Of a stretch of DNA of 64,000 bases, positions 18,147-55,194 are shown piece by piece. Both the position numbers and the translations under genes were made by a program. The notes beneath the pieces were generated by a model that worked only from the letters and a program-made list of their open reading frames with translations, was not told where the DNA came from and made no database searches. The stretch lies in contig CADECP010000005.1 in the NCBI GenBank assembly GCA_902825875.1, forward strand, positions 50,168 through 114,167, given 5' to 3'. This DNA is from an uncultured Acidobacteriota bacterium. Lineage in GTDB: Bacteria; Acidobacteriota; Blastocatellia; RBC074. Positions within the stretch are counted from its first letter, which is position 1; every line of letters starts with the position of its first letter.

Positions 18147-18223
18147 ATCCACGAAGAAACACGAAGATGACACGAAGAAAACCAAAGTTTTTTCTTCGTG
18201 AAACTTCGTGTTCCTTCGTGGAT
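18147..18223. repeat. CACGAAG-decamer palindromic repeat forming nested hairpins between convergent genes (bidirectional terminator-like)
   Basis: atccacgaagaaacacgaagatgacacgaagaaaaccaaagttttttcttcgtgaaacttcgtgttccttcgtggat. Same family as 55018-55186. Confidence 0.6.
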
Positions 18224-18239
18224 AGAGATTTATGCTTTC

Positions 18240-18794
18240 CTACCTTCGCCGTCTGCTTCTTCCTTTCCCGCCCCCGCCAATGGATTTGACTGCCGACCAA
18301 GCAAGGTCAGCCGCCGTGTGAGACAACGCTCCCAGACACAATCCCAGAAATCCAGCCCACAAGTAGTTTTTGTCAGCTTGGTCGTAAAAAGAAAACATGT
18401 CGCTTTTGACCAGATTGAATTCCGCCGTCCAGGTGGTTTGCATTCCTCGCAAATAAGCGTGTCGCAAATACAACAACGTCGCCGCCACCACCGCGAACAT
18501 CAGCGCGAAATACATAATCCGCAACACAGTTCCCAAAACCGGCCCATGTGATAACGCCGAACGATGCGGCAAAGCGACTTGATACGGCTTCCAGATAAAT
18601 CGCAGCGGCCCCCAACGTTTGTACGGCCGGCTCATCAAATCCAGGTCAGGCCCGAACATCAACCCGGCGAACAACATCGCGGCTGTGGCGATGACGGACA
18701 TCAGGTGATCGCCGCCCCAATACATTTCCGCGCCCAGATACGTGAACGGAACCAACACATAAGTGATGATGTCGTGGGTGTCAGCATTTGGCAT
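18240..18794 (-). CDS. Membrane-bound metal-dependent hydrolase-like protein (DUF2227/YdjM-like)
   Basis: N-terminal MPNADTHDII, 4-5 TM helices, basic C-tail. Family assignment from memory, tentative. Confidence 0.5.
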   Translation of the reverse strand: MPNADTHDIITYVLVPFTYLGAEMYWGGDHLMSVIATAAMLFAGLMFGPDLDLMSRPYKRWGPLRFIWKPYQVALPHRSALSHGPVLGTVLRIMYFALMFAVVAATLLYLRHAYLRGMQTTWTAEFNLVKSDMFSFYDQADKNYLWAGFLGLCLGALSHTAADLAWSAVKSIGGGGKGRSRRRR

Positions 18795-18905
18795 AGACGC
18801 CTGCCTCCTTCTCTTTCATTGTTCTATCTATGAAACAGAAAGATACCGAAGCCGACAAGTTCAGGTCAAGCGGCGTAATTTCAGGATTCATTTCGGCGGG
18901 AAAGT

Positions 18906-20246
18906 TCAGGCGTAATCGGCTTGGGAGTATGGTTTGGGAATTGGCGAATCCACCAATCGCAACAATGAGTACACGCTCAACGCGCGTTCGGCCATCTGCG
19001 TCGAAGAGTAATGTTCGCGGACGTTTGCTGCTCCTTGCCGAGCCAGATCATTGGCAAGTTCAGGGTTTTTCCAAAGCGAATAAATGGCATCGGCCAACGC
19101 GGCGACATTGCCCGGTTCAAATAATAACCCACCATTGGTTCGTTCGATGATTTCGGTGAATGAACCGTGGCGAGGTTGCACGACTGGGACACCGCTGGCC
19201 ATGGCTTCGAGTACGGACAAACCTTTCGCTTCGACATAAGTCGTCGGGATGGAAATTACGTCTACGTTTTGAAAGAAATTGAGCTTGGATTCGCGCTCCA
19301 AAGCGCCGTGATAATGAAACTCGCCGGCCAAACCGGCTTCGCGCATTTCCCGCTCAATCTTTTGCAAATAGTGTTTGTGTTCCGGCGCCAGATAACCTGC
19401 GACCTCAAGCTGCGCAGGTGCAAAATCTCCTCGCCGTCTCAGCAGCCGGTAGGCTTCGGCCAGCACATGCAAACCTTTTTCCGGCGCGATGCGCGCGAAA
19501 TATCCAACACGAAACACTTCATTGCTGGTTAGTTGTTTCGGTTTGTACTCTTTCAAGTTGATGCCCAGCGGCACGACATGAATTTTGCTGCGCGGGATTT
19601 TCAGGTAGTCGGCCATGAAGTCGGCGTAATAATCGCTGACCGCCAGAAAAGCATCCACGTATTGCGAATGTTCGTGAATCAGACTGAGCGCCTGGCTGCG
19701 ATACGGTTCGCGCATTCCGTCAAGAAACAAATCTTCACCTTGCAACGTGCAGCAAATCGGACTACCTGTCGCTTCTTTGACGGGTTTGGCCAACCCGATC
19801 AACATCGAATTCTGCATATCCACAACATCGGGAGCGCCATCAAACGGGTCGGTTTTCAGCCAATCAGTCAGCTTGGCAATTTCTTTTCGTTGATTGCCGT
19901 GTTCACCTTTCAAAATCGAAAGCGTCATTTCACAGAGCGAATCCGGGTCAACGGCGATGGAACGTTTTGACGCGGCTTTGAGCGCGAACGACGAATCCCA
20001 CAACTTATCCAACCAGCGCGGTGTGTGACGAAAAAGTGCCGAGTGCTGTTCCAGATACACACTGATTCCACCAAAGAAGACCTTCTCGCTGCTGACGCTG
20101 GGTTCGTCGGTCAGCGGCGGGGTATACAACGGCTGCAACGTGACTTCGTGCCCTTGCCGCAACAACTCCGAGGCAAGCGCATTGTCCCGCAAACAACTGC
20201 CGCAATACATTCCAGCGGCTCCGGCTGTCAGGTACAGAATCTTCAT
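18906..20246 (-). CDS. Glycosyltransferase family 4 (GT-B, glycosyl transferase group 1)
   Basis: MKILYLT...GHEV N-domain and C-terminal EAKGLSVLEAMASGVPVV plus FEPGN (E-x7-E region). Start at MKILY (AGGTGA upstream). Unusual GMYCGSC in the first loop. Confidence 0.8.
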   Translation of the reverse strand: MKILYLTAGAAGMYCGSCLRDNALASELLRQGHEVTLQPLYTPPLTDEPSVSSEKVFFGGISVYLEQHSALFRHTPRWLDKLWDSSFALKAASKRSIAVDPDSLCEMTLSILKGEHGNQRKEIAKLTDWLKTDPFDGAPDVVDMQNSMLIGLAKPVKEATGSPICCTLQGEDLFLDGMREPYRSQALSLIHEHSQYVDAFLAVSDYYADFMADYLKIPRSKIHVVPLGINLKEYKPKQLTSNEVFRVGYFARIAPEKGLHVLAEAYRLLRRRGDFAPAQLEVAGYLAPEHKHYLQKIEREMREAGLAGEFHYHGALERESKLNFFQNVDVISIPTTYVEAKGLSVLEAMASGVPVVQPRHGSFTEIIERTNGGLLFEPGNVAALADAIYSLWKNPELANDLARQGAANVREHYSSTQMAERALSVYSLLRLVDSPIPKPYSQADYA

Positions 20247-20261
20247 AAAACTATTTATCAC

Positions 20262-20615
20262 CTACTGCAGGCCCAGAAGTTTTCTTTTCATTGATCTAGG
20301 GGACTGCCAGTAGCTCATTCCAGGTGGAATGCGCGGATTACGGGGAGGCGGGTACTGTTTCCGTAGTATTGCAAAAACGTTTTGAGTCAATTTGAGAGCG
20401 TCTTTATCATCTCCTACCCTGTCTTTCTGGGCCTCTAGCCAATGTGCGACATAGGTCGAAAAATTAGGGTGTGTGTTACCGTAAGCCTCAACCGACCTCC
20501 AATAGTGTCCTTCAATGAGCATCAAAGTTGCCCGCGCACGCTCCTCATCTGTTGTTGCGTTGTCATACATCGTCGAAGCTTGGTCTTTAAGCTTTTCCCG
20601 CTCGCAGTAATCCAT
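20262..20615 (-). CDS. Hypothetical protein, GC-poor gene embedded in operon
   Basis: 117-aa ORF abutting the GT4 start. Local GC clearly lower than flanks. No recognisable motif. Confidence 0.4.
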   Translation of the reverse strand: MDYCEREKLKDQASTMYDNATTDEERARATLMLIEGHYWRSVEAYGNTHPNFSTYVAHWLEAQKDRVGDDKDALKLTQNVFAILRKQYPPPRNPRIPPGMSYWQSPRSMKRKLLGLQ

Positions 20616-20676
20616 AAGAAACTTCTCCGCTTATCACAATTGAGCAAAAACTGATTGGACACTACAGCTTGACCAG

Positions 20677-22101
20677 TCAAGCTGTCATCGCGCGTTGAAA
20701 CGCTCGCCGTGCGTACAAATGTTCGAACAAATTGCCTTCGTGCGGTTGATCCCAGGCGATCTTCATCGTCGGAATCGCGCCTATGTTCAGGCGATCTACG
20801 TGCGAAGAATTCACCAACCGATTGATAAGCTTCAGGTCTTTGGTGATTGCCGTCACCACCAGCGAAGGCCCAAAGGCTTCGGGCATTTGTTCGGGTTTGA
20901 CTTCGACTACGCTGGCAAACGGGAACAGGAATTCTCGATTGGCCAGCGGGTGTTCCGGGCTTTCAACGTGAACGATGGTCGGCAGTAAGTACGTCGCGCC
21001 GTCAACTTCTACCAGGCGTTCGCCGCGAACTTTCGCCGAAACATCGGTCGCGCCCGATTCGCGCAAACCGGAATCCACGATCCCTGAAATGCGTTTGGCA
21101 ATGTCGGCATTGGCAAACGGAGCCAACAAAGCTTCGGGGTCTTCGGCGTCGCGCGGAACGATTTTGGCAACTCGTTCGGCCACAGCCTGAGCAATCTCTT
21201 TTCCGTGCCGAGTCACCCAAACGCCCGAAGCATTGATACAAGATCGTCCGCCGTTTTCCGTGATCGAAGCGACCATGACATCCAGGTATTTTTCCCAATC
21301 GTCCACCACGTCATCACCGAGCACGACTTTGCTGTAACCGGTTCCGTGCAATTCAACGCGAGAATCGCTGGCGTATTTTCCGACCGTAGACGAATCGCCA
21401 AAAAACATTCCGCGTCCGCACGATTGCAAGATCGCGCCCGCTCCGCCGTGATCCGCCGGGTAATAACCGAAAGCTTCTTTCGGTACGCCTGCTTTGATCA
21501 GAGCCTGAGCAATTCGATACGGCGACCAAGGCTCGCTGCTGCCGGGTTTCAAAACCAGCGGCACTTTCATCGCAATCGAAGGAATCCATAAGCTGTGAAC
21601 TCCCGGCGAATTGCTTGGCAAAATCACGCCGAGCGAATTTGTGCGCGGAAAGAAACTGACCGAGTGGCCTTCGTGAGTACCAAACCCATCATCCAGAATT
21701 TTCAGATCAATGCCGCGCGTCAGCCCGTCGAGCACGGATTTCATTTCCGCCATCACGCCGCTGATCTTGCTCATGTTTTTGCGAACCAGCACGTGCGGCA
21801 TTCCAGTTGTTGCCGACAACTGGCGAACGTAATCATCCGGCGTTTGCGATTCGTCACCGACCGGCAAGGTGTCGTTCATAAAATAATCCGCAGCCTGACG
21901 ACACATCGCTATCAACCGATCGGTCGTGAAGGCCGCCAGCATCGCCTGAATAGAGTCCAGGTCGCGCAAATCGCGCCGGATCAATCCGGCATTCGCCTGA
22001 CTGAGTTCAACAAACGTTTCGCGCGTTCGGAAATGCGGCACGCGCGAAACATCAACACTTTTATAAGAATTGCCTTTGCGAAGAATGGGTATGTGAAGCA
22101 T
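20677..22101 (-). CDS. ALDH-superfamily protein, LuxC-like acyl-CoA reductase
   Basis: About 475 aa. Architecture and motifs resemble LuxC/ALDH (ILPSNSPG..., catalytic-Cys region ITENGGRSCINASG). Start set at MLHIPIL to avoid a 14-nt overlap. Confidence 0.7.
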   Translation of the reverse strand: MLHIPILRKGNSYKSVDVSRVPHFRTRETFVELSQANAGLIRRDLRDLDSIQAMLAAFTTDRLIAMCRQAADYFMNDTLPVGDESQTPDDYVRQLSATTGMPHVLVRKNMSKISGVMAEMKSVLDGLTRGIDLKILDDGFGTHEGHSVSFFPRTNSLGVILPSNSPGVHSLWIPSIAMKVPLVLKPGSSEPWSPYRIAQALIKAGVPKEAFGYYPADHGGAGAILQSCGRGMFFGDSSTVGKYASDSRVELHGTGYSKVVLGDDVVDDWEKYLDVMVASITENGGRSCINASGVWVTRHGKEIAQAVAERVAKIVPRDAEDPEALLAPFANADIAKRISGIVDSGLRESGATDVSAKVRGERLVEVDGATYLLPTIVHVESPEHPLANREFLFPFASVVEVKPEQMPEAFGPSLVVTAITKDLKLINRLVNSSHVDRLNIGAIPTMKIAWDQPHEGNLFEHLYARRAFQRAMTA

Positions 22102-22108
22102 TGCGTTC

Positions 22109-23134
22109 TTAAATTTCCTCATCTGTTGTTTCTCTTAGGTACTCATTAATCAGAGATTCGACAACATAAAAGTTAAAACCACTTTGGTAATGAAGTCTGT
22201 AGAAGTTAACAATATCCGCAATTTCGTATAGCAACTGCATTGACTTCGGCAACTGGCCAATTTCGCGAAAACCAAAGCCGCTGTTAATACCACAACTTTC
22301 AATAACCTTTTCTTTTAAGTGCTCCAGCGCAGCAACTCTCCTGCCTTCCAATCCCATAATTTCGCTCAGCAGTGGCAGCGTCTGAGCAGCTTGCTCACAA
22401 AGATTCCTGAAATAGGTTTGACTGAACATCTCCAAACGAAGCAACTCAAGAAACTTTTCTCGCACATAAAAATGCACTTTCTCCGCATAGCGAACCCCAA
22501 GAGCTTTGATCTTTATCAGTTCTTGCACATCAACCAAGTCTTTTTGCCTTTGTGGATTTGTCATGCCAGAGGCAAGTTTCAAGCTGATGAGGTTATCAAG
22601 CGTAAGTGTTTTAACCTGATTAATGACAATGCTCGCTGTTCCAGGAATCGGAAAGCTAATGGGTTTTACTTCTCCATCTCCGGGATACTCACCCGCGGTG
22701 ATGATTTCAATTGGAACGTTCCTTAAAATCTCGCGGAAAGTTTTCTTCGCTCCCTTGAACTTTTCCACATATCCAAGCCCGACAAGTTCTTGATGAAATT
22801 TCTCAAGCCCTTCTTTTGTCATCAGCAAGTCTATATCCGAGGTAAAACGTGGATAACCATGTTGATTCAAGGCGACAGCACCAATCACGGCGTAATCAAT
22901 CCCATGTTTTTCCAAGTCTGCAACAAGTTTTTTTAGAGTTTCGTTCAGCATGCCTTTGCCCTCAAAGAAATCCAGCCCTTCTTCGTACGTCAACACCGGT
23001 GACAACAAGACCTGTTGAAAATCTGTTCCGCGTTGAAAGCTTTGTACAGCACTCATAACAAACTGCTTGCTCTGGAAAAAGGTTTTACAAAATCCATGAT
23101 CGGGAAAATTTGACGGCGAAACGATACCGGGCAT
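22109..23134 (-). CDS. Nucleotidyltransferase-fold protein (MNT/NTP_transf-like), GC-poor
   Basis: GAVALNQHGYPRFTSDIDLLM = G[SA]x9-13Dh[DE]h nucleotidyltransferase signature. Gene is about 45% GC by eye. Confidence 0.55.
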   Translation of the reverse strand: MPGIVSPSNFPDHGFCKTFFQSKQFVMSAVQSFQRGTDFQQVLLSPVLTYEEGLDFFEGKGMLNETLKKLVADLEKHGIDYAVIGAVALNQHGYPRFTSDIDLLMTKEGLEKFHQELVGLGYVEKFKGAKKTFREILRNVPIEIITAGEYPGDGEVKPISFPIPGTASIVINQVKTLTLDNLISLKLASGMTNPQRQKDLVDVQELIKIKALGVRYAEKVHFYVREKFLELLRLEMFSQTYFRNLCEQAAQTLPLLSEIMGLEGRRVAALEHLKEKVIESCGINSGFGFREIGQLPKSMQLLYEIADIVNFYRLHYQSGFNFYVVESLINEYLRETTDEEI

Positions 23135-23224
23135 CGCGCGTTTTCACAATCTCGTTGAGTCTAGGCTGGAAAACGAAAAGCGCGGCTGAGGAGGCGCTTT
23201 TCTCATCTTATCGGCAGAACCGGT

Positions 23225-24259
23225 TCAGGATTCAGCGCGAACAGGGTCTTCGACAATGTCGCCTGTGGGTGCGTGTTTCGGGAAAACTTCAGGAATGTCG
23301 AAGGGTTCTTGCGGAGCACGCCAGTTGTCCAGCATCGCCACTTGCTGGACGCAAGCGATGGTGCAGAATTTGGCGCAGGGTTTTTCCGACCGGAATTCAT
23401 GTTCAATATGTTCGCGCGTGTATTCTGCCAGCGGGATTCCAGGATAGCCGCGCTGTTGCGAGCAGTAATGCACAAGGCCGTCTTCGCAAATGTACAGGTA
23501 ACGTGCTCCGGCTCGGCAGCGCCAGTTGTGCGGACGCCCGTGAGCAAGATTGTCTTGAAACTGATTCAACCAGCCGAATTTCTTTTTGCCGAATCGGCGA
23601 AGCTTTTGATAAACCACTTCTTCCCTGCCACTCAACGGTTTCAACTGGCCGCTGTGGTCGTGAATGATGCCCAGCGTCGAACCGAAGCCGAGTTCGACCG
23701 CGCGTTCGGAAACCGTCACCGCATCTTCCGGATTTTGAATGCCACCGCCAATCACCGAATTGATATTGATGTGAAACTTGGCGTATTTCGACAGGTTGAC
23801 CAGATAGCGGTCAATCACCTTCAAGCTTTTCTGCGAAACCTTGTCCGGTTTGACGTTATCAATGCTGATTTGCAGGTATTCCAATCCGGCTTGATTGAGC
23901 TTTTCGATGTTTTCACGGGTCATGTAATACCCGTTGCTGATAAGCCCCGCGATCATTCCGTGAGACCGAATGTGGGTGATGATGTCGAAAATCTGCGGAT
24001 GCAACATCGGCTCGCCGCCGCTGATGGTAATGGTAGTTGTGCCGAACGAAGCCAGTTTGTCCAACCGTCGCTTCATTTCTTCAAACGGCACTGGGTCAGA
24101 AGTCTTGTCGTATTCGTTGCAATATCCACAGGCCAGATTGCATCGGCGCATTGGGATGACGTGCGCCAAAATCGGGTGACTGGTCGAAGCCAGTCCTTTG
24201 GCAACGAGTTTTGCTTCGCGCAGAGTTCGGCTCAGTTTGCTGCTGCTTAAGTCTGTCAT
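23225..24259 (-). CDS. Radical SAM protein with C-terminal SPASM/twitch-like Cys-rich domain
   Basis: CNLACGYC (CxxxCxxC), then the glycine-rich segment [11 protein letters not shown]-terminal [20 protein letters not shown]...CAKFCTIAC. Confidence 0.8.
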
Positions 24260-24348
24260 TGAAAGTCCATTGGTACGGATGAAGTACCTGCCTCCTGATT
24301 ACACAAAGTCGCTCCAAGTCGTCGTGGACAAGATTAGCGAAATTGGCG

Positions 24349-24384
24349 AAAAGGACGAGCTTTTATGAACTCGTCCTTTTCGCA
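24349..24384. terminator. Hairpin aaaggacgagc-N9-gctcgtccttt with T-rich tail (terminator for LolA-like gene / insulator before radical SAM operon)
   Basis: Seen directly between 24259 and 24423. Confidence 0.4.
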
Positions 24385-24422: not shown

Positions 24423-25121
24423 TTACAGCTTGTCTATGATTTTCGTGCCGCCCGGCAGATTGATGACAAACGCCGAATCGGCAATGTTCGTGTTGACCTG
24501 CGTATTTTTCAGCGAAATGACGGTGTAATCGCCGTTGCGTTCGACCATCTTCCACTGCACAGGCAATCCGCTTTGCGAAACCCAGATGTCAATCGAAGTA
24601 AAATCGCTCTTGGTTTTCGGAGTCAGCCGCAGAATTGTCGCCATCTGTCCACTCACTTGAGCATCGCCTGCGATGTCCATGTTGTAACTGTTGAGCAATG
24701 CTCGCAGTGAACCATCCAAACCGACCAAATTGGCGGCAGTTTTGCCTTTGGTGGCTTTGCTGACCGTGCTTTTCATCGCCTGATTCAGCTTCGGTTCGTA
24801 AAACGTGAAGCTTTCGCCGATCACCGACAATGTCTTGATGCCGGGTTTGGTGTAATCAATCCGCAGCTTGCCTTTGTCTTTGCCGACACCCGGTTTGTAA
24901 ATCAACATGCCGTAATCGGAATCCTTGCTGCCGATTTGCGGATTCACTTTTTCCTGAACCAATTCGGCTTTCAGGCTTTTCATTTGTTTGTGGGCAGTCT
25001 CCATCTTGTTGAGAATGCCTGTGAGAATCTGGGGCGATGCTTTGACATCAAAAACCGGCTTCGCTCCGACCAGAGTCAGAACCAGACCGGTAATCAGCGC
25101 CAATGTCATAAATTTTTTCAT
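24423..25121 (-). CDS. LolA-like outer-membrane lipoprotein carrier/sorting protein
   Basis: Signal peptide, about 230 aa, beta-rich with LolA-like length and pattern. In a cluster with an ABC ATPase plus FtsX permease. Confidence 0.6.
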   Translation of the reverse strand: MKKFMTLALITGLVLTLVGAKPVFDVKASPQILTGILNKMETAHKQMKSLKAELVQEKVNPQIGSKDSDYGMLIYKPGVGKDKGKLRIDYTKPGIKTLSVIGESFTFYEPKLNQAMKSTVSKATKGKTAANLVGLDGSLRALLNSYNMDIAGDAQVSGQMATILRLTPKTKSDFTSIDIWVSQSGLPVQWKMVERNGDYTVISLKNTQVNTNIADSAFVINLPGGTKIIDKL

Positions 25122-25171
25122 TCGTTACTTCTCCATCTCCGTATGGCTTTCAGGTTACAACCGCTGGACTT

Positions 25172-25573
25172 TTATTTGATCCAGACCTTATAGCCGTTGC
25201 CCCGCGTTTGCGGGTTGATAAAGGGTTCGTATTTGCTGACGCTTACATCCTGATTGAGTTTGTCGCTCAGAAAAAGCGAAAGAGCTTCCTGTGGCGCATT
25301 CAAAATCAACTCAGCCTTGTTCAGCCTGTTCAAAAAAAACTGCAATTCGGCAACAGGGACCTCCTGAACCGTTTCGCCCGGCTTCGATGCCGAAACCGGA
25401 CGTTCATTTGCCCTGACGGTTTTGATACTTTCGCGGTCACGGTCGCCGAAGTATTCGCTGGGAACCAAAAATATCGTGCCAATAATCAACGCGCAAAGAA
25501 CGTCGTATTGCCAGGTTCCGCGCTCATGCGACCAGAGTATGATGTTTTTGATTTCCACGAATAACGATTTCAT
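25172..25573 (-). CDS. Hypothetical small membrane protein
   Basis: Start taken at MKSLFVEIKN. One TM segment (VLCALIIGTIFLV). Confidence 0.45.
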   Translation of the reverse strand: MKSLFVEIKNIILWSHERGTWQYDVLCALIIGTIFLVPSEYFGDRDRESIKTVRANERPVSASKPGETVQEVPVAELQFFLNRLNKAELILNAPQEALSLFLSDKLNQDVSVSKYEPFINPQTRGNGYKVWIK

Positions 25574-25616
25574 CTCACATCTTCTCTGCAATTCAGCAAG
25601 GTTGCGACGACAATTG

Positions 25617-26300
25617 TCATTTTTCGCCGACAATCATTCCGTCGCGCATGTGAACCGTTCTGGCGGCCACCGCAGCGGCTTCGGGATTGTGCGTAATCAT
25701 GACGATTGTCTGATTCAGTTCGCGATTGAGCTTTTGCAACATCTCCAAAACGATTTCGGAATTTTCCGAATCCAGATTCCCTGTCGGCTCGTCGGCCAAA
25801 ATGATCGCCGGACGAGTAATGATTGCTCTCGCTATGGCGACTCGTTGTTGTTCTCCACCTGAAAGCTCTAAAGGCTTGTGCCGCATTTTATTTTCGAGCC
25901 GCAATAACCGCAAGACTTCGCGGCGTACCTCTTCGTCCACAACCTTTTTTCCGTTGCCGTGAATTTGTTCGGCCAATCGCAAATTGCCTTCGGCGGTCAG
26001 GGTTGGAAACAGGTTGAACCGCTGGAACACAAATCCAATCTTGCGGCGGCGAGTGTCTGTTCGCTCAGCGTCGGTCATTCCGGCCATGTCTTCATTATCA
26101 ACGATCACCTTGCCCGAAGTCGGTTTCAGCAAGCCGCCCAAAATGTGCAGCATAGTGGATTTGCCGCATCCCGAAGGCCCCATAATTGAGACGAACTCGC
26201 CACGCCCAACCGACAAATTGACTCCGCGCAGCGCGTTCACGTCCACTCTGCCGACGCGATAAGTCATCACCAAATTTTCAGTTTTTAGAATTGCGTCCAT
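25617..26300 (-). CDS. ABC transporter ATP-binding protein (LolD/MacB/FtsE-like)
   Basis: Walker [11 protein letters not shown]-loop, signature [14 protein letters not shown], Walker [13 protein letters not shown]-loop ITHN. Confidence 0.9.
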
Positions 26301-26387
26301 AAAAGTTCACAGTTCTCAGTTCGCGGTTCACAGCTTTGGCAATTGCTCAGGTTCGGGATTCAACTGCGAACTGCCAACAGCGAACTC

Positions 26388-27482
26388 TTATTCGTAAGAC
26401 AAAGCCTGTACCGCGTCTTTGTTCGCCGCTCGAATCGCCGGATAAAGCGCGCCCAAAGCTCCGGCTCCCAAGCCGATCAAACCGGCGCGCAGAATCCACG
26501 ACCAGGTGAATTCCAGTTGCAGAGTCGTCGCGCGCTCCAGCGCCCAAGCCGCGATCATCGAAATTATCAATCCGACCAAAACTCCAATCAGGCTGATGGT
26601 CAAAGCTTCTTTTTCGATGACGCCGATGATGAAGCCTTTCGACGCTCCCAGCGATTTCAAAATGCCAATTTCGCGTGTGCGCTCGGTAATCGTCGTGTAC
26701 ATCGCCAGCAAAATCACCAGCGCACTGACAATCACCGACAACACCAGCACGGCGCGAACAAAGCCTTTGATACCAGGAATTTCGCGCCCAACACCGACGC
26801 CCAGGTCGCGCGTCAGCAGAATTTCATTACCCGGCAATTCATCCAGAATGCGCTGGCGAACATCATCCTGCTTTTCCGGGTCTTTTACTTTGACCAGAAT
26901 TTCAAAGCACTTGCCTTCGGCGGACAGCGCATTTTGCAACGCGCTGAGCGGCATCTTTATCCTTGATCCAACTTGCGGCGAATAAATTCCCGATACTTTC
27001 TTGGTTTCGCCGAACACTTGAATATCGCTGCCGACCTTTAACTTATTGTGGAGTGCCTTGAATTCGTCAATCATCACTTCCTGATCGGTTTTCGGCGCAT
27101 TGCCTTCAACAACTTTCGCGCCCGTGATCGCCGAATACGACTCGAACTCCACGCCTTCTACAATTTCCATTCCCAAACCGCTGTTGCCGCTTTGAATGTA
27201 ATACCCGACAGGGCTGACCTGTCCGACGCCTTCGATTTTCATCAGCCGATCGGCGTATCGAACGTCAACCGGATTGCTGGACGACGGCGAAAGCATCGCG
27301 CCGCTGCGTCCAAAGCGAATTTCTGCGCCGACACCTCGTTCGCGTTTGATGCGGTCGTTGAGCATTCCTTCGACCAGCCCGGTATTCAAAACAATCAGCA
27401 CCACACCCAAAGCTACGCCGGCCACACTGAGCAGAGTGCGCGTCGGTCGCTGACGAATGTTGGAAGCTACCAGATTGTCCAT
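26388..27482 (-). CDS. ABC transporter permease, FtsX/MacB-type with periplasmic domain (LolC/E-like)
   Basis: N-terminal TM, large periplasmic domain, C-terminal FtsX 3-TM bundle ([12 protein letters not shown]...). Confidence 0.85.
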
Positions 27483-27500
27483 AAAGTTTTGCGCTCTGAA

Positions 27501-28508
27501 TTACGGCGCAGGCGGTTTGTCCAGATCAACTTCTTTCAGTTTTTCGGTGTTTTCCAGCATGAACGCAGTGGCAGGAAGTTCGGGATCAATTTCAAAGCTC
27601 ATTTCGTTGAACAACAGCCGAGCCGAGTATCCATCGTGCGGGCGACTGACCAGAATCACGCTCGGCCAAAGATCGGCGCTGTTTTCGTTCAGCTTTTTGT
27701 AGTCGGAATAATAGACTTCAGTGGTCAGCGTGCCTTTAACATCAAAAAGCTGCTGGCGGGCGAACCTTAATCCGTTGGTTCGATCAAACCAGAGTCGGCG
27801 AACGATTTTTGAAATCCCCGTCCCCATTCCCGGCACACCAAGTTCGATCTCGGAAATCACATAAAAACTGCGAACAACGCGCGAACCTTTCGGCGCTTTC
27901 GGCGTCGGGTCGGCTTCTTCGACCAACGCTTCTTCCATCAAATAAGTGTAGCGCGAATCATTGACCATCAGCGGGCGCATCATGAGAGCTTCAGTAAAAT
28001 GAAACGGACGCGCCGCCACCAATCCGCTGTTTGCCTTTTCACCGAGCTTTTCACGCCACATGCTGTAATCGGCGTCATTGGTTCCGATCAAAAAGCTTGG
28101 CGATTGTTGGTAAAGAGCGACTTTGAACTTGCTGGATTCCGAAACCATTTCGGCAATTTTGATCTTGCCGATAGGAGCATTAATGATCAGACGAATCTTG
28201 TCCGGTCTCATCAACACCAGATTGGAATCCGTTTCCGGCCAACGTTCGGCAAGCCCAGTATCCTGAAAAACTATGCCGACACGTGTCCTGAGTGATTGAA
28301 GGCCGGCAAACGGCTTCACCTGTTTAACCAGGTCTTCAAAACTGGCATCCGCCAATGGAGTAATAAGTTTAGGAATTGAACGGTCTTTGGTGACGATCAA
28401 ACTTTTACAGGAAGCGCCGAACAAAGACAGTCCGATGACTGCCATCAACACGCCTGCATGCAGAAATTGACGCCTGATTTCCCACCGCAATCGGTCTACT
28501 TGAACCAT
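27501..28508 (-). CDS. Putative lipoprotein (LolB/DUF4292-like?)
   Basis: Signal with LFGASC lipobox-like cysteine, first gene of the ABC cluster. Family assignment weak. Confidence 0.55.
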   Translation of the reverse strand: MVQVDRLRWEIRRQFLHAGVLMAVIGLSLFGASCKSLIVTKDRSIPKLITPLADASFEDLVKQVKPFAGLQSLRTRVGIVFQDTGLAERWPETDSNLVLMRPDKIRLIINAPIGKIKIAEMVSESSKFKVALYQQSPSFLIGTNDADYSMWREKLGEKANSGLVAARPFHFTEALMMRPLMVNDSRYTYLMEEALVEEADPTPKAPKGSRVVRSFYVISEIELGVPGMGTGISKIVRRLWFDRTNGLRFARQQLFDVKGTLTTEVYYSDYKKLNENSADLWPSVILVSRPHDGYSARLLFNEMSFEIDPELPATAFMLENTEKLKEVDLDKPPAP

Positions 28509-54988: not shown

Positions 54989-55017
54989 GATTTTTCCCTT
55001 CTGAAATGTAGGTTAAA

Positions 55018-55186
55018 TCCACGAAGTCACACGAAGCAGCACGAAGAAGAAAAGACCTTAGACAGGATTTACAAGATTGGACAGGATTGACTGGCAGTCT
55101 GTTGAATCAGGCTTTCATCCTGTTGCATCCTGTAAATCCTGTCTAAAAATTTCTTCTCTTCGTGTCCTCTTCGTGTGTCTTCGTGG
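55018..55186. repeat. Composite nested palindrome: outer CACGAAG-decamer arms enclosing an 'empty' copy of the tagacaggatttacaagatt hairpin
   Basis: Outer arms ccacgaagtcacacgaagcagcacgaagaag... / ...cttctcttcgtgtcctcttcgtgtgtcttcgtgg. Inner arms tagacaggatttacaagatt / atcctgtaaatcctgtcta. Confidence 0.6.
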
Positions 55187-55194
55187 AAGATAAG

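Follow-up and report, generated by a model that had tools for sequence, protein, structure and literature searches.

Do the six genes that lie close together on the minus strand at 18240-24259 of a 64,000-nt stretch of acidobacterial DNA (contig CADECP010000005.1, positions 50,168 to 114,167; hereafter the window) encode a single biosynthetic pathway, or are they neighbors of separate origin? A preliminary description, made from the sequence alone, had read them as one uncharacterized cassette joining a radical S-adenosylmethionine (SAM) enzyme, a nucleotidyltransferase, a LuxC-like reductase of the aldehyde dehydrogenase (ALDH) superfamily, a small open reading frame (ORF), a glycosyltransferase of family GT4 and a membrane metal hydrolase (a DUF2227 protein). 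The ORF call contains all six, in one direction. Comparison with related genomes resolves them into the end of a Lol-like/radical SAM unit, mobile or lineage-specific insertions, a displaced core consisting of an EhpG-type reductase and the GT4 enzyme, and a subclade-specific DUF2227 gene. We consider it probable that two independently conserved modules have been juxtaposed here, with insertions added, and that the reductase and glycosyltransferase are the displaced core of a larger cassette encoding EhpF-like, EhpG-like and GT4 proteins, an ATP-binding cassette (ABC) ATPase and an FtsX permease. The observations of the preliminary description thus hold, while its interpretation holds in part: the gene pair and the late arrival of the AT-rich genes stand, the single unit does not.

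The larger cassette emerges from gene neighborhoods. We mapped the window's proteins, together with EhpF, onto the loci of the best 80 of at least 598 relatives of the reductase (one genome per species), counting for each neighbor only loci with enough flanking DNA; almost all of these records are titled Acidobacteriota and come from Blastocatellia, Pyrinomonadaceae, Bryobacteraceae, Solibacteraceae, Vicinamibacteria and Terriglobia. The GT4 gene directly follows the reductase gene in 68/73 species loci and lies within 4.5 kb of it in two more, which bears out the proposal that the two belong together. Directly upstream of the reductase, 44/65 loci carry a gene for an EhpF-like protein, with nine further loci in which inserted genes separate the two and two in which EhpF is on the opposite strand. 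Downstream, an ABC ATPase is found in 47/62 loci and a large (~1100-aa) FtsX permease in 36/51. The canonical order is therefore EhpF-like, EhpG-like, GT4, ABC ATPase and large FtsX/MacB-type permease. The remaining genes of the window's group are rare or missing at these loci: the radical SAM gene lies upstream of the reductase in 0/57, the nucleotidyltransferase gene in 2/57, and DUF2227 follows the ALDH-GT4 pair in 3/51.

Within the window's own subclade, the pair has parted from this context. An ALDH-GT4-DUF2227 arrangement beside a TonB-dependent receptor gene, lacking EhpF and ABC/FtsX, is confined to close relatives whose reductases are at least 88% identical to the window's (loci L007-L009, L011, L012 and L016), and the 64-kb window holds no homologue of the large FtsX permease or of the PQQ_2 propellers and SSF symporters met at other cassette loci. 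In assembly GCA_018269055.1, where the reductase is 92% identical, ALDH-GT4-DUF2227 and EhpF lie on separate contigs, and the ancestral site reads Vut_1, EhpF, a BrnT/CopG toxin-antitoxin pair, glyoxalase, acetyltransferase and PQQ_2 propeller. In four more assemblies and in contigs from ENA metagenomes the order is Vut_1-EhpF-PQQ_2, and the ALDH-GT4-ABC-FtsX block is cleanly absent. Given that EhpF has stayed behind, conserved, at an ancestral site from which ALDH-GT4 is gone, we conclude that the reductase-GT4 pair was relocated as a unit. Both genes have been kept functional, as their dN/dS ratios against the closest relative, L007, are 0.045 (ALDH) and 0.054 (GT4). What the window itself holds is a rearranged copy of this core, riddled with insertions, a more modest result than the wider cassette, which is uncharacterized, conserved across two phyla and of more interest.

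The ancestral site has features of its own. At the loci that lack the ALDH-GT4-ABC-FtsX block (L183-L188 and L093), the highly conserved EhpF gene sits between Vut_1 and a PQQ_2 propeller gene, and EhpF-PQQ_2 is followed by genes for SBF and DUF485 plus SSF (ActP-like) transporters, a recurring association of EhpF with carboxylate-type symporters. SSF symporters also recur near EhpF/EhpG in Planctomycetota, Halalkalicoccus and locus L077; as the symporters of these loci and of L183-L188 belong to different subfamilies, we take them as a hint only and do not count them as functional partners. Vut_1, a queuosine-precursor transporter family, was likewise rejected as a partner, being adjacent only in close Blastocatellia relatives and giving no match in the 80 species loci.

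The reductase that anchors the cassette matches PF00171 (66.7 bits, E 1.9e-18; Pfam gathering cut-off 23 bits), and its AlphaFold model (predicted local distance difference test score, pLDDT, 92) is a complete ALDH fold with a template-modeling score of 0.78 to many ALDH structures; a structure search with the model found generic ALDHs as the nearest solved relatives and none closer. Its sequence defines a distinct subfamily of 358 clusters (50% identity) at E<=1e-30. In a redundant protein collection, 8000/8000 of the word-sharing candidates scored had E<=1e-5 to it, and Blastocatellia matches are 76-99% identical. The LuxC assignment did not survive a search with PF05893, which gave zero matches even at E<=10. 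Instead, tblastn against plasmids led to the ehp phenazine cluster of Pantoea agglomerans, in which a gene of the ALDH family (EhpG) comes after an AMP-binding gene (EhpF); ehpG was identified by its position within this cluster, and the gene names follow PMC11278526. The window reductase aligns with EhpG over residues 90-468 (BLASTP, 26% identity, 124 bits, E 2e-35), and we correct its annotation from LuxC to EhpG-type. The EhpF-EhpG pair is also present in an Escherichia coli plasmid phenazine cluster and on a Halalkalicoccus plasmid, where it adjoins a sodium:solute symporter gene. Loci titled Heliomicrobium, Heliobacteriaceae, Verrucomicrobiia and Bifidobacteriaceae (L012, L013, L015, L072 and L088) carry the acidobacterial cassette with reductases 59-90% identical to the window's, and these bins are probably mislabeled or contaminated.

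The partner found directly upstream of the reductase in relatives is a 360-aa protein with a faint AMP-binding match. The acidobacterial protein nevertheless matches the EhpF structures 3hgu and 3l2k at E 3e-46 and Pantoea EhpF at 32% identity (BLASTP, E 3e-50), and it is very strongly conserved, at 74-85% identity across acidobacterial classes. EhpF is reportedly an adenylating enzyme of the ANL type without the C-terminal domain, and EhpF and EhpG together are said to have been proposed to convert a phenazine carboxylate through an acyl-adenylate to the aldehyde. The canonical acidobacterial cassette resembles the Pantoea pair, part of the D-alanylgriseoluteic acid cluster, in protein sizes (~360 and 474 aa), in gene order and adjacency, and in the catalytic cysteine within the same GG-x-x-C motif. 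It differs in lacking phenazine genes, in having a CxxC-containing GT4 enzyme and an ABC/FtsX exporter as partners, and in being conserved vertically as a core throughout a phylum, not carried on a plasmid as an antibiotic cluster; the window's reductase differs further in having no EhpF next to it.

The active site of the subfamily points to a reductive enzyme. The catalytic Cys288 (GGRSC, codon 21238-21240) and the oxyanion Asn164 (PSNSPG) are invariant in both of our alignments (A1 and A2), whereas the general-base glutamate of hydrolytic ALDHs (Glu268 equivalent, ELGGK) is not conserved: the position is His in the window and its close relatives (VELHGTGYSK), Q, R, N, F or Y elsewhere, and Q in EhpG. 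In addition, planctomycete members of the subfamily, 46-48% identical to the window's, are fused to an iron alcohol dehydrogenase (Fe-ADH) or directly followed by one. The fusion has the domain layout of AdhE and therefore speaks for the sequence acyl to aldehyde to alcohol, that is, the reductive direction, although the window ALDH carries no such fusion and no Fe-ADH lies near it in the acidobacterial loci examined. Taken together, these sequence features suggest that the ALDH-like protein would reduce an acyl-adenylate or thioester to an aldehyde with NAD(P)H, the acyl donor probably being an EhpF adenylate rather than acetyl-CoA.

It is unlikely that the protein is instead an ordinary oxidative aldehyde dehydrogenase that lies beside a housekeeping GT4 gene by coincidental synteny. 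Such an enzyme would fit the assignments from Pfam and NCBIfam, which give the general ALDH family only, with scores far below the cut-offs of the curated equivalogs, as well as the generic character of its structural neighbors and the fact that no reductase-GT4 fusion was seen. It would leave unexplained an adjacency that holds across acidobacterial classes and recurs in Planctomycetota, and the joint relocation of the two genes in the window's subclade. Moreover, the glutamate that such an enzyme would use for thioester hydrolysis is the residue that is not conserved, the closest relative with a characterized context, EhpG, is paired with an adenylating enzyme, and the Fe-ADH fusions mark the aldehyde as product, not substrate.

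The GT4 assignment was confirmed by profile search, with matches to both PF00534 (101.5 bits, E 4.8e-29) and PF13439 (50.2 bits, E 4.1e-13), and its sequence matches in the PDB are GT4 enzymes of the MshA, BshA and TreT types; we take it to be a retaining enzyme of GT-B fold. The loop that had been singled out as odd (GMYCGSC) is real, but it is a family signature rather than an oddity: Cys15 and Cys18 (MYCGSCLRDN) are invariant in all 71 GT4 sequences compared, planctomycete copies among them, and this CxxC loop sits where GT4 enzymes usually have their N-terminal glycine loop. Alignment with homologues also corrects two starts, placing that of the GT4 enzyme at 20246 (MKILY...) and not at 20261, and that of the reductase at 22101 (MLHIP...) and not at 22122 as in the ORF call (20677-22122). 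With these starts the junctions are 7-nt and 15-nt spacers, and not the overlapping or abutting stop and start codons reported before.

Two Planctomycetota gene clusters (L177 and L178) hold the same gene set as the acidobacterial cassette, with extra genes interspersed. Their proteins are 57-59% (EhpF), 46-53% (EhpG), 35% (GT4, full length) and 45% (ABC) identical to the acidobacterial ones, a large FtsX permease follows the ABC ATPase, and the Fe-ADH is fused to or adjoins the reductase. The extra genes encode an SSF symporter, the Fe-ADH, BamB-like propellers, a HemN-like radical SAM enzyme, a flavin halogenase/GGR-like enzyme and a 4HBT thioesterase. NCBIfam returned zero families above cut-off for any cassette member, these planctomycete neighbors included.

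The extended planctomycete cassette spans ~4.2-16.6 kb of the L177 locus. It begins with two PQQ_2 propellers, DUF3311 plus the SSF symporter, EhpF, EhpG with Fe-ADH and a BamB-like propeller, and continues with the HemN-like radical SAM enzyme, the flavin halogenase/GGR-like enzyme, GT4, the 4HBT thioesterase, a 175-aa protein, ABC and large FtsX. Homologues of the 175-aa protein lie near the cassette in 17 acidobacterial loci.

From homology, conserved synteny, the active-site pattern and the domain fusions, we infer the following as the most likely mechanism. EhpF, encoded elsewhere in the window's lineage, would adenylate a carboxylate; the acyl group would pass to Cys288 of the EhpG-like enzyme and be reduced with NAD(P)H to the aldehyde and, where an Fe-ADH is present, on to the alcohol; GT4 would then glycosylate the product or a derivative of it, and in the canonical cassette the ABC/FtsX pump would export it to the envelope. 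The first steps would follow the logic of LuxC/LuxE, in which a truncated ANL-type activating enzyme works with a Cys-dependent ALDH-superfamily reductase that releases an aldehyde. EhpG itself matches LuxC below threshold (18.5 bits), and by analogy the window reductase may work like LuxC though it is not a member of that family; the EhpF-like proteins, unlike LuxE, have no LuxE match, and a LuxD or luciferase context is absent. For the later steps the heterocyst glycolipid pathway, with its HglT glycosyltransferase and DevBCA MacB-type exporter, offers an analogy only: the two would share the reductive release of an alcohol, a glycosyltransferase of the GT4 type (Glycos_transf_1) and a MacB-type ABC/FtsX exporter, whereas the cassette loci examined have no adjoining polyketide synthase, membrane-fusion protein or TolC.

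The assembly of the window can be pictured in the same terms. An acidobacterial LolCDE/LolA-like cassette with a Cys-rich radical SAM enzyme as its terminal gene would be one module, and the other would be the reductase/GT4 core of the cassette found throughout Acidobacteriota. This pair would have left EhpF, landed beside the first module and gained DUF2227 downstream and the AT-rich nucleotidyltransferase upstream, with the ~430-nt insertion that holds the orphan ORF arising in the window's lineage only.

Several points weigh against this picture. A search of the 64-kb window found no EhpF homologue, the 80 top-scoring reductase loci are skewed toward relatives of the query, and gene adjacency alone is no proof of a shared pathway. 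The chemistry of EhpF and EhpG in Pantoea is reportedly itself a structure-based proposal, the acceptor specificity of the GT4 enzyme is unreadable from its sequence and its PDB matches are generic, and no curated NCBIfam model covering the acidobacterial clade, which is without any studied member, was found. Finally, the terminator-like hairpin that follows the radical SAM gene is no stabler than shuffled sequence, so that this gene may be co-transcribed with those downstream. Our literature search returned nothing that joins Acidobacteria to the EhpF/EhpG/GT4/ABC/FtsX gene set, and no description of EhpF/EhpG chemistry.

In soil, Acidobacteriota rank with the most abundant bacteria, and no experiment has addressed the majority of their conserved genes of unknown role. 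The reductase was met in at least 598 genomes at species level and recurs in Planctomycetota, there joined by an alcohol dehydrogenase; the conservation of the cassette suggests an undescribed core envelope or metabolite pathway. More speculatively, and as a possibility to which we give rather little weight at present, EhpF-like, EhpG-like, CxxC-GT4 and ABC/large-FtsX proteins could make up a pathway of ancient origin that has escaped description, present in all Acidobacteriota and also in Planctomycetota, in which a carboxylate is converted to an aldehyde or alcohol, glycosylated and exported to the envelope. Its product might be, for example, an envelope component of the alkyl-glycoside kind or one related to ether lipids, in phyla with unusual lipids that still lack assigned enzymes. 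If so, the window would demonstrate that reductase and GT4 can act in trans to the adenylase, and the cassette's gene junctions would be hot spots for selfish insertions. The analysis as a whole yields a defined target, namely an EhpF/EhpG-type two-component carboxylate reductase coupled to a CxxC-GT4 enzyme and usually to a MacB-type exporter.

Table 1. Positions of genes, insertions and structured elements in the window.
Feature	Positions	Strand	Basis or remark
EhpG-type ALDH-superfamily reductase, 474 aa	20677..22101	-	PF00171, EhpG BLASTP
GT4 glycosyltransferase, 446 aa, conserved partner of the reductase	18906..20246	-	PF00534 + PF13439
CxxC loop of GT4 (C15, C18)	20193-20204	-	invariant in 71/71 orthologues
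Lol-like cassette: 335-aa protein, LolC/E-like FtsX permease, LolD-like ABC ATPase, 153-aa protein, LolA-like carrier	24423..28508	-	Pfam
Radical SAM enzyme, last gene of the Lol-like cassette	23225..24259	-	PF04055
AT-rich nucleotidyltransferase-fold protein, 341 aa	22109..23134	-	weak NTP_transf_5 and AbiEii matches
Lineage-specific insertion, ~430 nt, between reductase and GT4	20247..20678	-	~350 nt net vs L007
Orphan ORF, 117 aa	20262-20615	-	no family
DUF2227 putative metal-binding membrane protein	18240..18794	-	PF09988
Strong hairpin in the LolA-radical SAM spacer	24346..24383		14-nt perfect arms, dG -27.6 kcal/mol, z -5.9
Terminator-like hairpin followed by GUUUUCC, 10 nt after the radical SAM stop	23175..23202	-	9-bp stem
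CACGAAG-repeat palindrome between convergent TonB-dependent receptor and DUF2227 genes	18147..18223		20-nt arms, 95% complementary

The radical SAM gene is part of another module. Its product matches PF04055 (74.1 bits, E 1.9e-20), and in all 80 orthologues compared the cluster motif C40-x3-C44-x2-C47 (CNLACGYC) and the C-terminal cysteines 248, 258, 266, 295, 299 and 303 are invariant, nine cysteines in a pattern consistent with one radical SAM cluster and auxiliary cluster(s). The cysteine pattern is SPASM/twitch-like, as proposed, while PF13186 gave no match at E<=0.01, and the SPASM-family models of NCBIfam match the N-terminal core only. A viperin-like defense role was rejected, as the PADLOC matches cover the generic radical SAM core only. 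The context of the gene was taken from a metagenome scan with its protein, using the best 80 of at least 585 relatives (loci L095-L174). In 57/63 of these loci the next gene upstream is LolA-like, with a median spacer of ~200 nt, a LolD-like ABC ATPase lies within 3 kb in 38/40, and the Lol-like cassette and the radical SAM gene are collinear; ALDH, GT4, EhpF or DUF2227 is found in 0/80, and the radical SAM gene adjoins ALDH/GT4 only in the window's lineage. The radical SAM gene therefore belongs to the Lol-like cassette upstream of it. The genes of that cassette match LolA, ABC_tran, FtsX and MacB_PCD in Pfam, which likens them to LolA, a LolC/E-type FtsX permease and a LolD-type ABC ATPase, although the window's proteins score below the NCBIfam equivalog cut-offs (the lolA match is sub-threshold). 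To our knowledge, no radical SAM partner has been described for a lipoprotein-sorting system, and no described Lol operon ends in a conserved gene for a Cys-rich radical SAM enzyme, which makes this gene a lead in its own right.

These ties make it very unlikely that all six genes form one co-functional operon for a modified glycolipid or other conjugate, as first proposed. The genes are co-directional and closely spaced, the order radical SAM-nucleotidyltransferase-ALDH-GT4-DUF2227 is shared with a close relative (L007/L008), and the planctomycete cassettes have a radical SAM gene between reductase and GT4. However, the planctomycete HemN-like enzyme is unrelated to the window's (no BLASTP match at E<=1e-3, so that we rejected orthology of the two), and the radical SAM, nucleotidyltransferase and DUF2227 genes are missing from nearly all of the 80 reductase loci, just as reductase and GT4 are missing from the radical SAM loci. 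The 117-aa ORF is unique to the window's lineage, and a terminator-like hairpin follows the radical SAM gene. The comparative data thus largely refute a conserved six-gene unit.

The AT-rich genes noted in the preliminary description proved to be later acquisitions. The GC content of the window is 0.532; at third codon positions (GC3) it is 0.433 in the nucleotidyltransferase gene and 0.500 in the 117-aa ORF, against 0.545-0.654 in twelve other genes measured, which agrees with the proposed mosaic. From 28586 to 15011 the window and L007 are collinear in nucleotide alignment save for two window-specific segments, 22112-22445, which is a C-terminal extension of the nucleotidyltransferase, and 20247-20678, which contains the 117-aa ORF. 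Together with the synonymous divergence (dS) of the nucleotidyltransferase and the singleton status of the ORF, both given below, these insertions mark the reductase-GT4 pair as the older unit.

A nucleotidyltransferase fold is supported in part, as the protein scores marginally above the AbiEii gathering cut-off (23.2 against 22.5 bits) but below that of NTP_transf_5 (25.6 against 31.2 bits). An alternative start at 23056 would give 315 aa, and a single-sequence AlphaFold model reached pLDDT 41, too low for use. Over its N-terminal 233 residues the protein shares 73% identity with one of 229 aa that takes its place in L007, and the C-terminal extension has no counterpart there. In the window, L007, L016 and L017, four lineages in all, the gene fills the slot of EhpF, with 7-30 nt between it and the ALDH gene downstream; it is absent upstream of ALDH-GT4 in L009, L011, L012 and L013. 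Its GC3 is low in all four lineages that have it (0.43-0.54 versus 0.60-0.68 for the adjoining ALDH), its dS against L007 is ~2.0 versus 0.4-1.0 for seven flanking genes, and its dN/dS is 0.10; by these measures the gene is functional, and it is exchanged or evolves apart from the genes around it. In the window its translation keeps the motif G-x-...-D-x-D (IGAVALNQHGYPRFTSDIDLL). At the presumed catalytic D-x-D the window has SDIDLL but the L007 copy (L007:7302-7991) has SDINLL, and to judge from this substitution the L007 protein may be catalytically inactive. An AbiE type IV toxin-antitoxin system was rejected, the upstream gene being the radical SAM gene and not AbiEi with no ORF called between, as was a defense role for this protein or the 117-aa ORF, neither of which has a PADLOC match.

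That the nucleotidyltransferase has replaced EhpF non-orthologously and taken over substrate adenylylation for the reductase is the least probable reading and a highly improbable one: its place in the EhpF slot, its purifying selection and its retained motif would suit such a role, but four loci of the group do without it, the L009 genome and several related assemblies retain the highly conserved EhpF at the ancestral site, the L007 copy has DIN and not DID, AT-richness and a threefold higher dS point to horizontal exchange, and the usual targets of nucleotidylation by polymerase β-fold nucleotidyltransferases are hydroxyls or proteins, not carboxylates.

The second insertion, between reductase and GT4, is absent from L007, L009, L011 and others in nucleotide alignment. 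Its 117-aa ORF matches none of the other loci fetched at either the DNA or the protein level, forms a singleton cluster in a collection of 15 billion proteins, belongs to no Pfam, NCBIfam or PADLOC family, and may not be a real gene. In other lineages the same junctions carry cargo of their own, and the EhpF/EhpG junction is an insertion hot spot. Inserts at that junction vary across lineages (L093, L094, L178, L018, L055, L077, L079 and L014) and comprise BrnT/CopG and DUF4258 toxin-antitoxin pairs, a 23S_rRNA_IVP protein, BamB-like propellers, an SSF symporter, Ser/Thr kinases and phosphatidylserine decarboxylase; some of these may be true accessory genes.

The DUF2227 protein matches nearly the whole of PF09988 (150.7 bits, E 5e-44, profile positions 1-167 of 169). 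A gap of 111 nt with a promoter-like site (18869-18840) separates its gene from GT4, and in L012 and L016 an extra gene lies between the two; judged from this spacer, DUF2227 is probably under its own promoter.

Of the two hairpins near the radical SAM gene, the stronger had been taken as the end of the operon. It is real, and partly conserved in L007 and L095, with no match to an Rfam family, but it lies inside the LolA-radical SAM spacer and therefore is not the boundary of a biosynthetic operon. The weaker one, just after the radical SAM stop codon, is as stable as its shuffles (z 0.01), and its position is only suggestive of a boundary between the Lol/radical SAM and nucleotidyltransferase-reductase units. 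At the other end of the group, the CACGAAG palindrome is present as first described and far stabler than shuffled sequence (dG -49 and -45 kcal/mol on the two strands; z -9.3). A known RNA or riboswitch in the spacers was rejected, Rfam giving only spurious microRNA-precursor matches on this long palindrome, which is probably a bidirectional terminator or a repetitive extragenic palindromic (REP)-like element. Related copies lie at 55017-55193, ~37 kb away, and suggest a REP-like repeat family in this genome.

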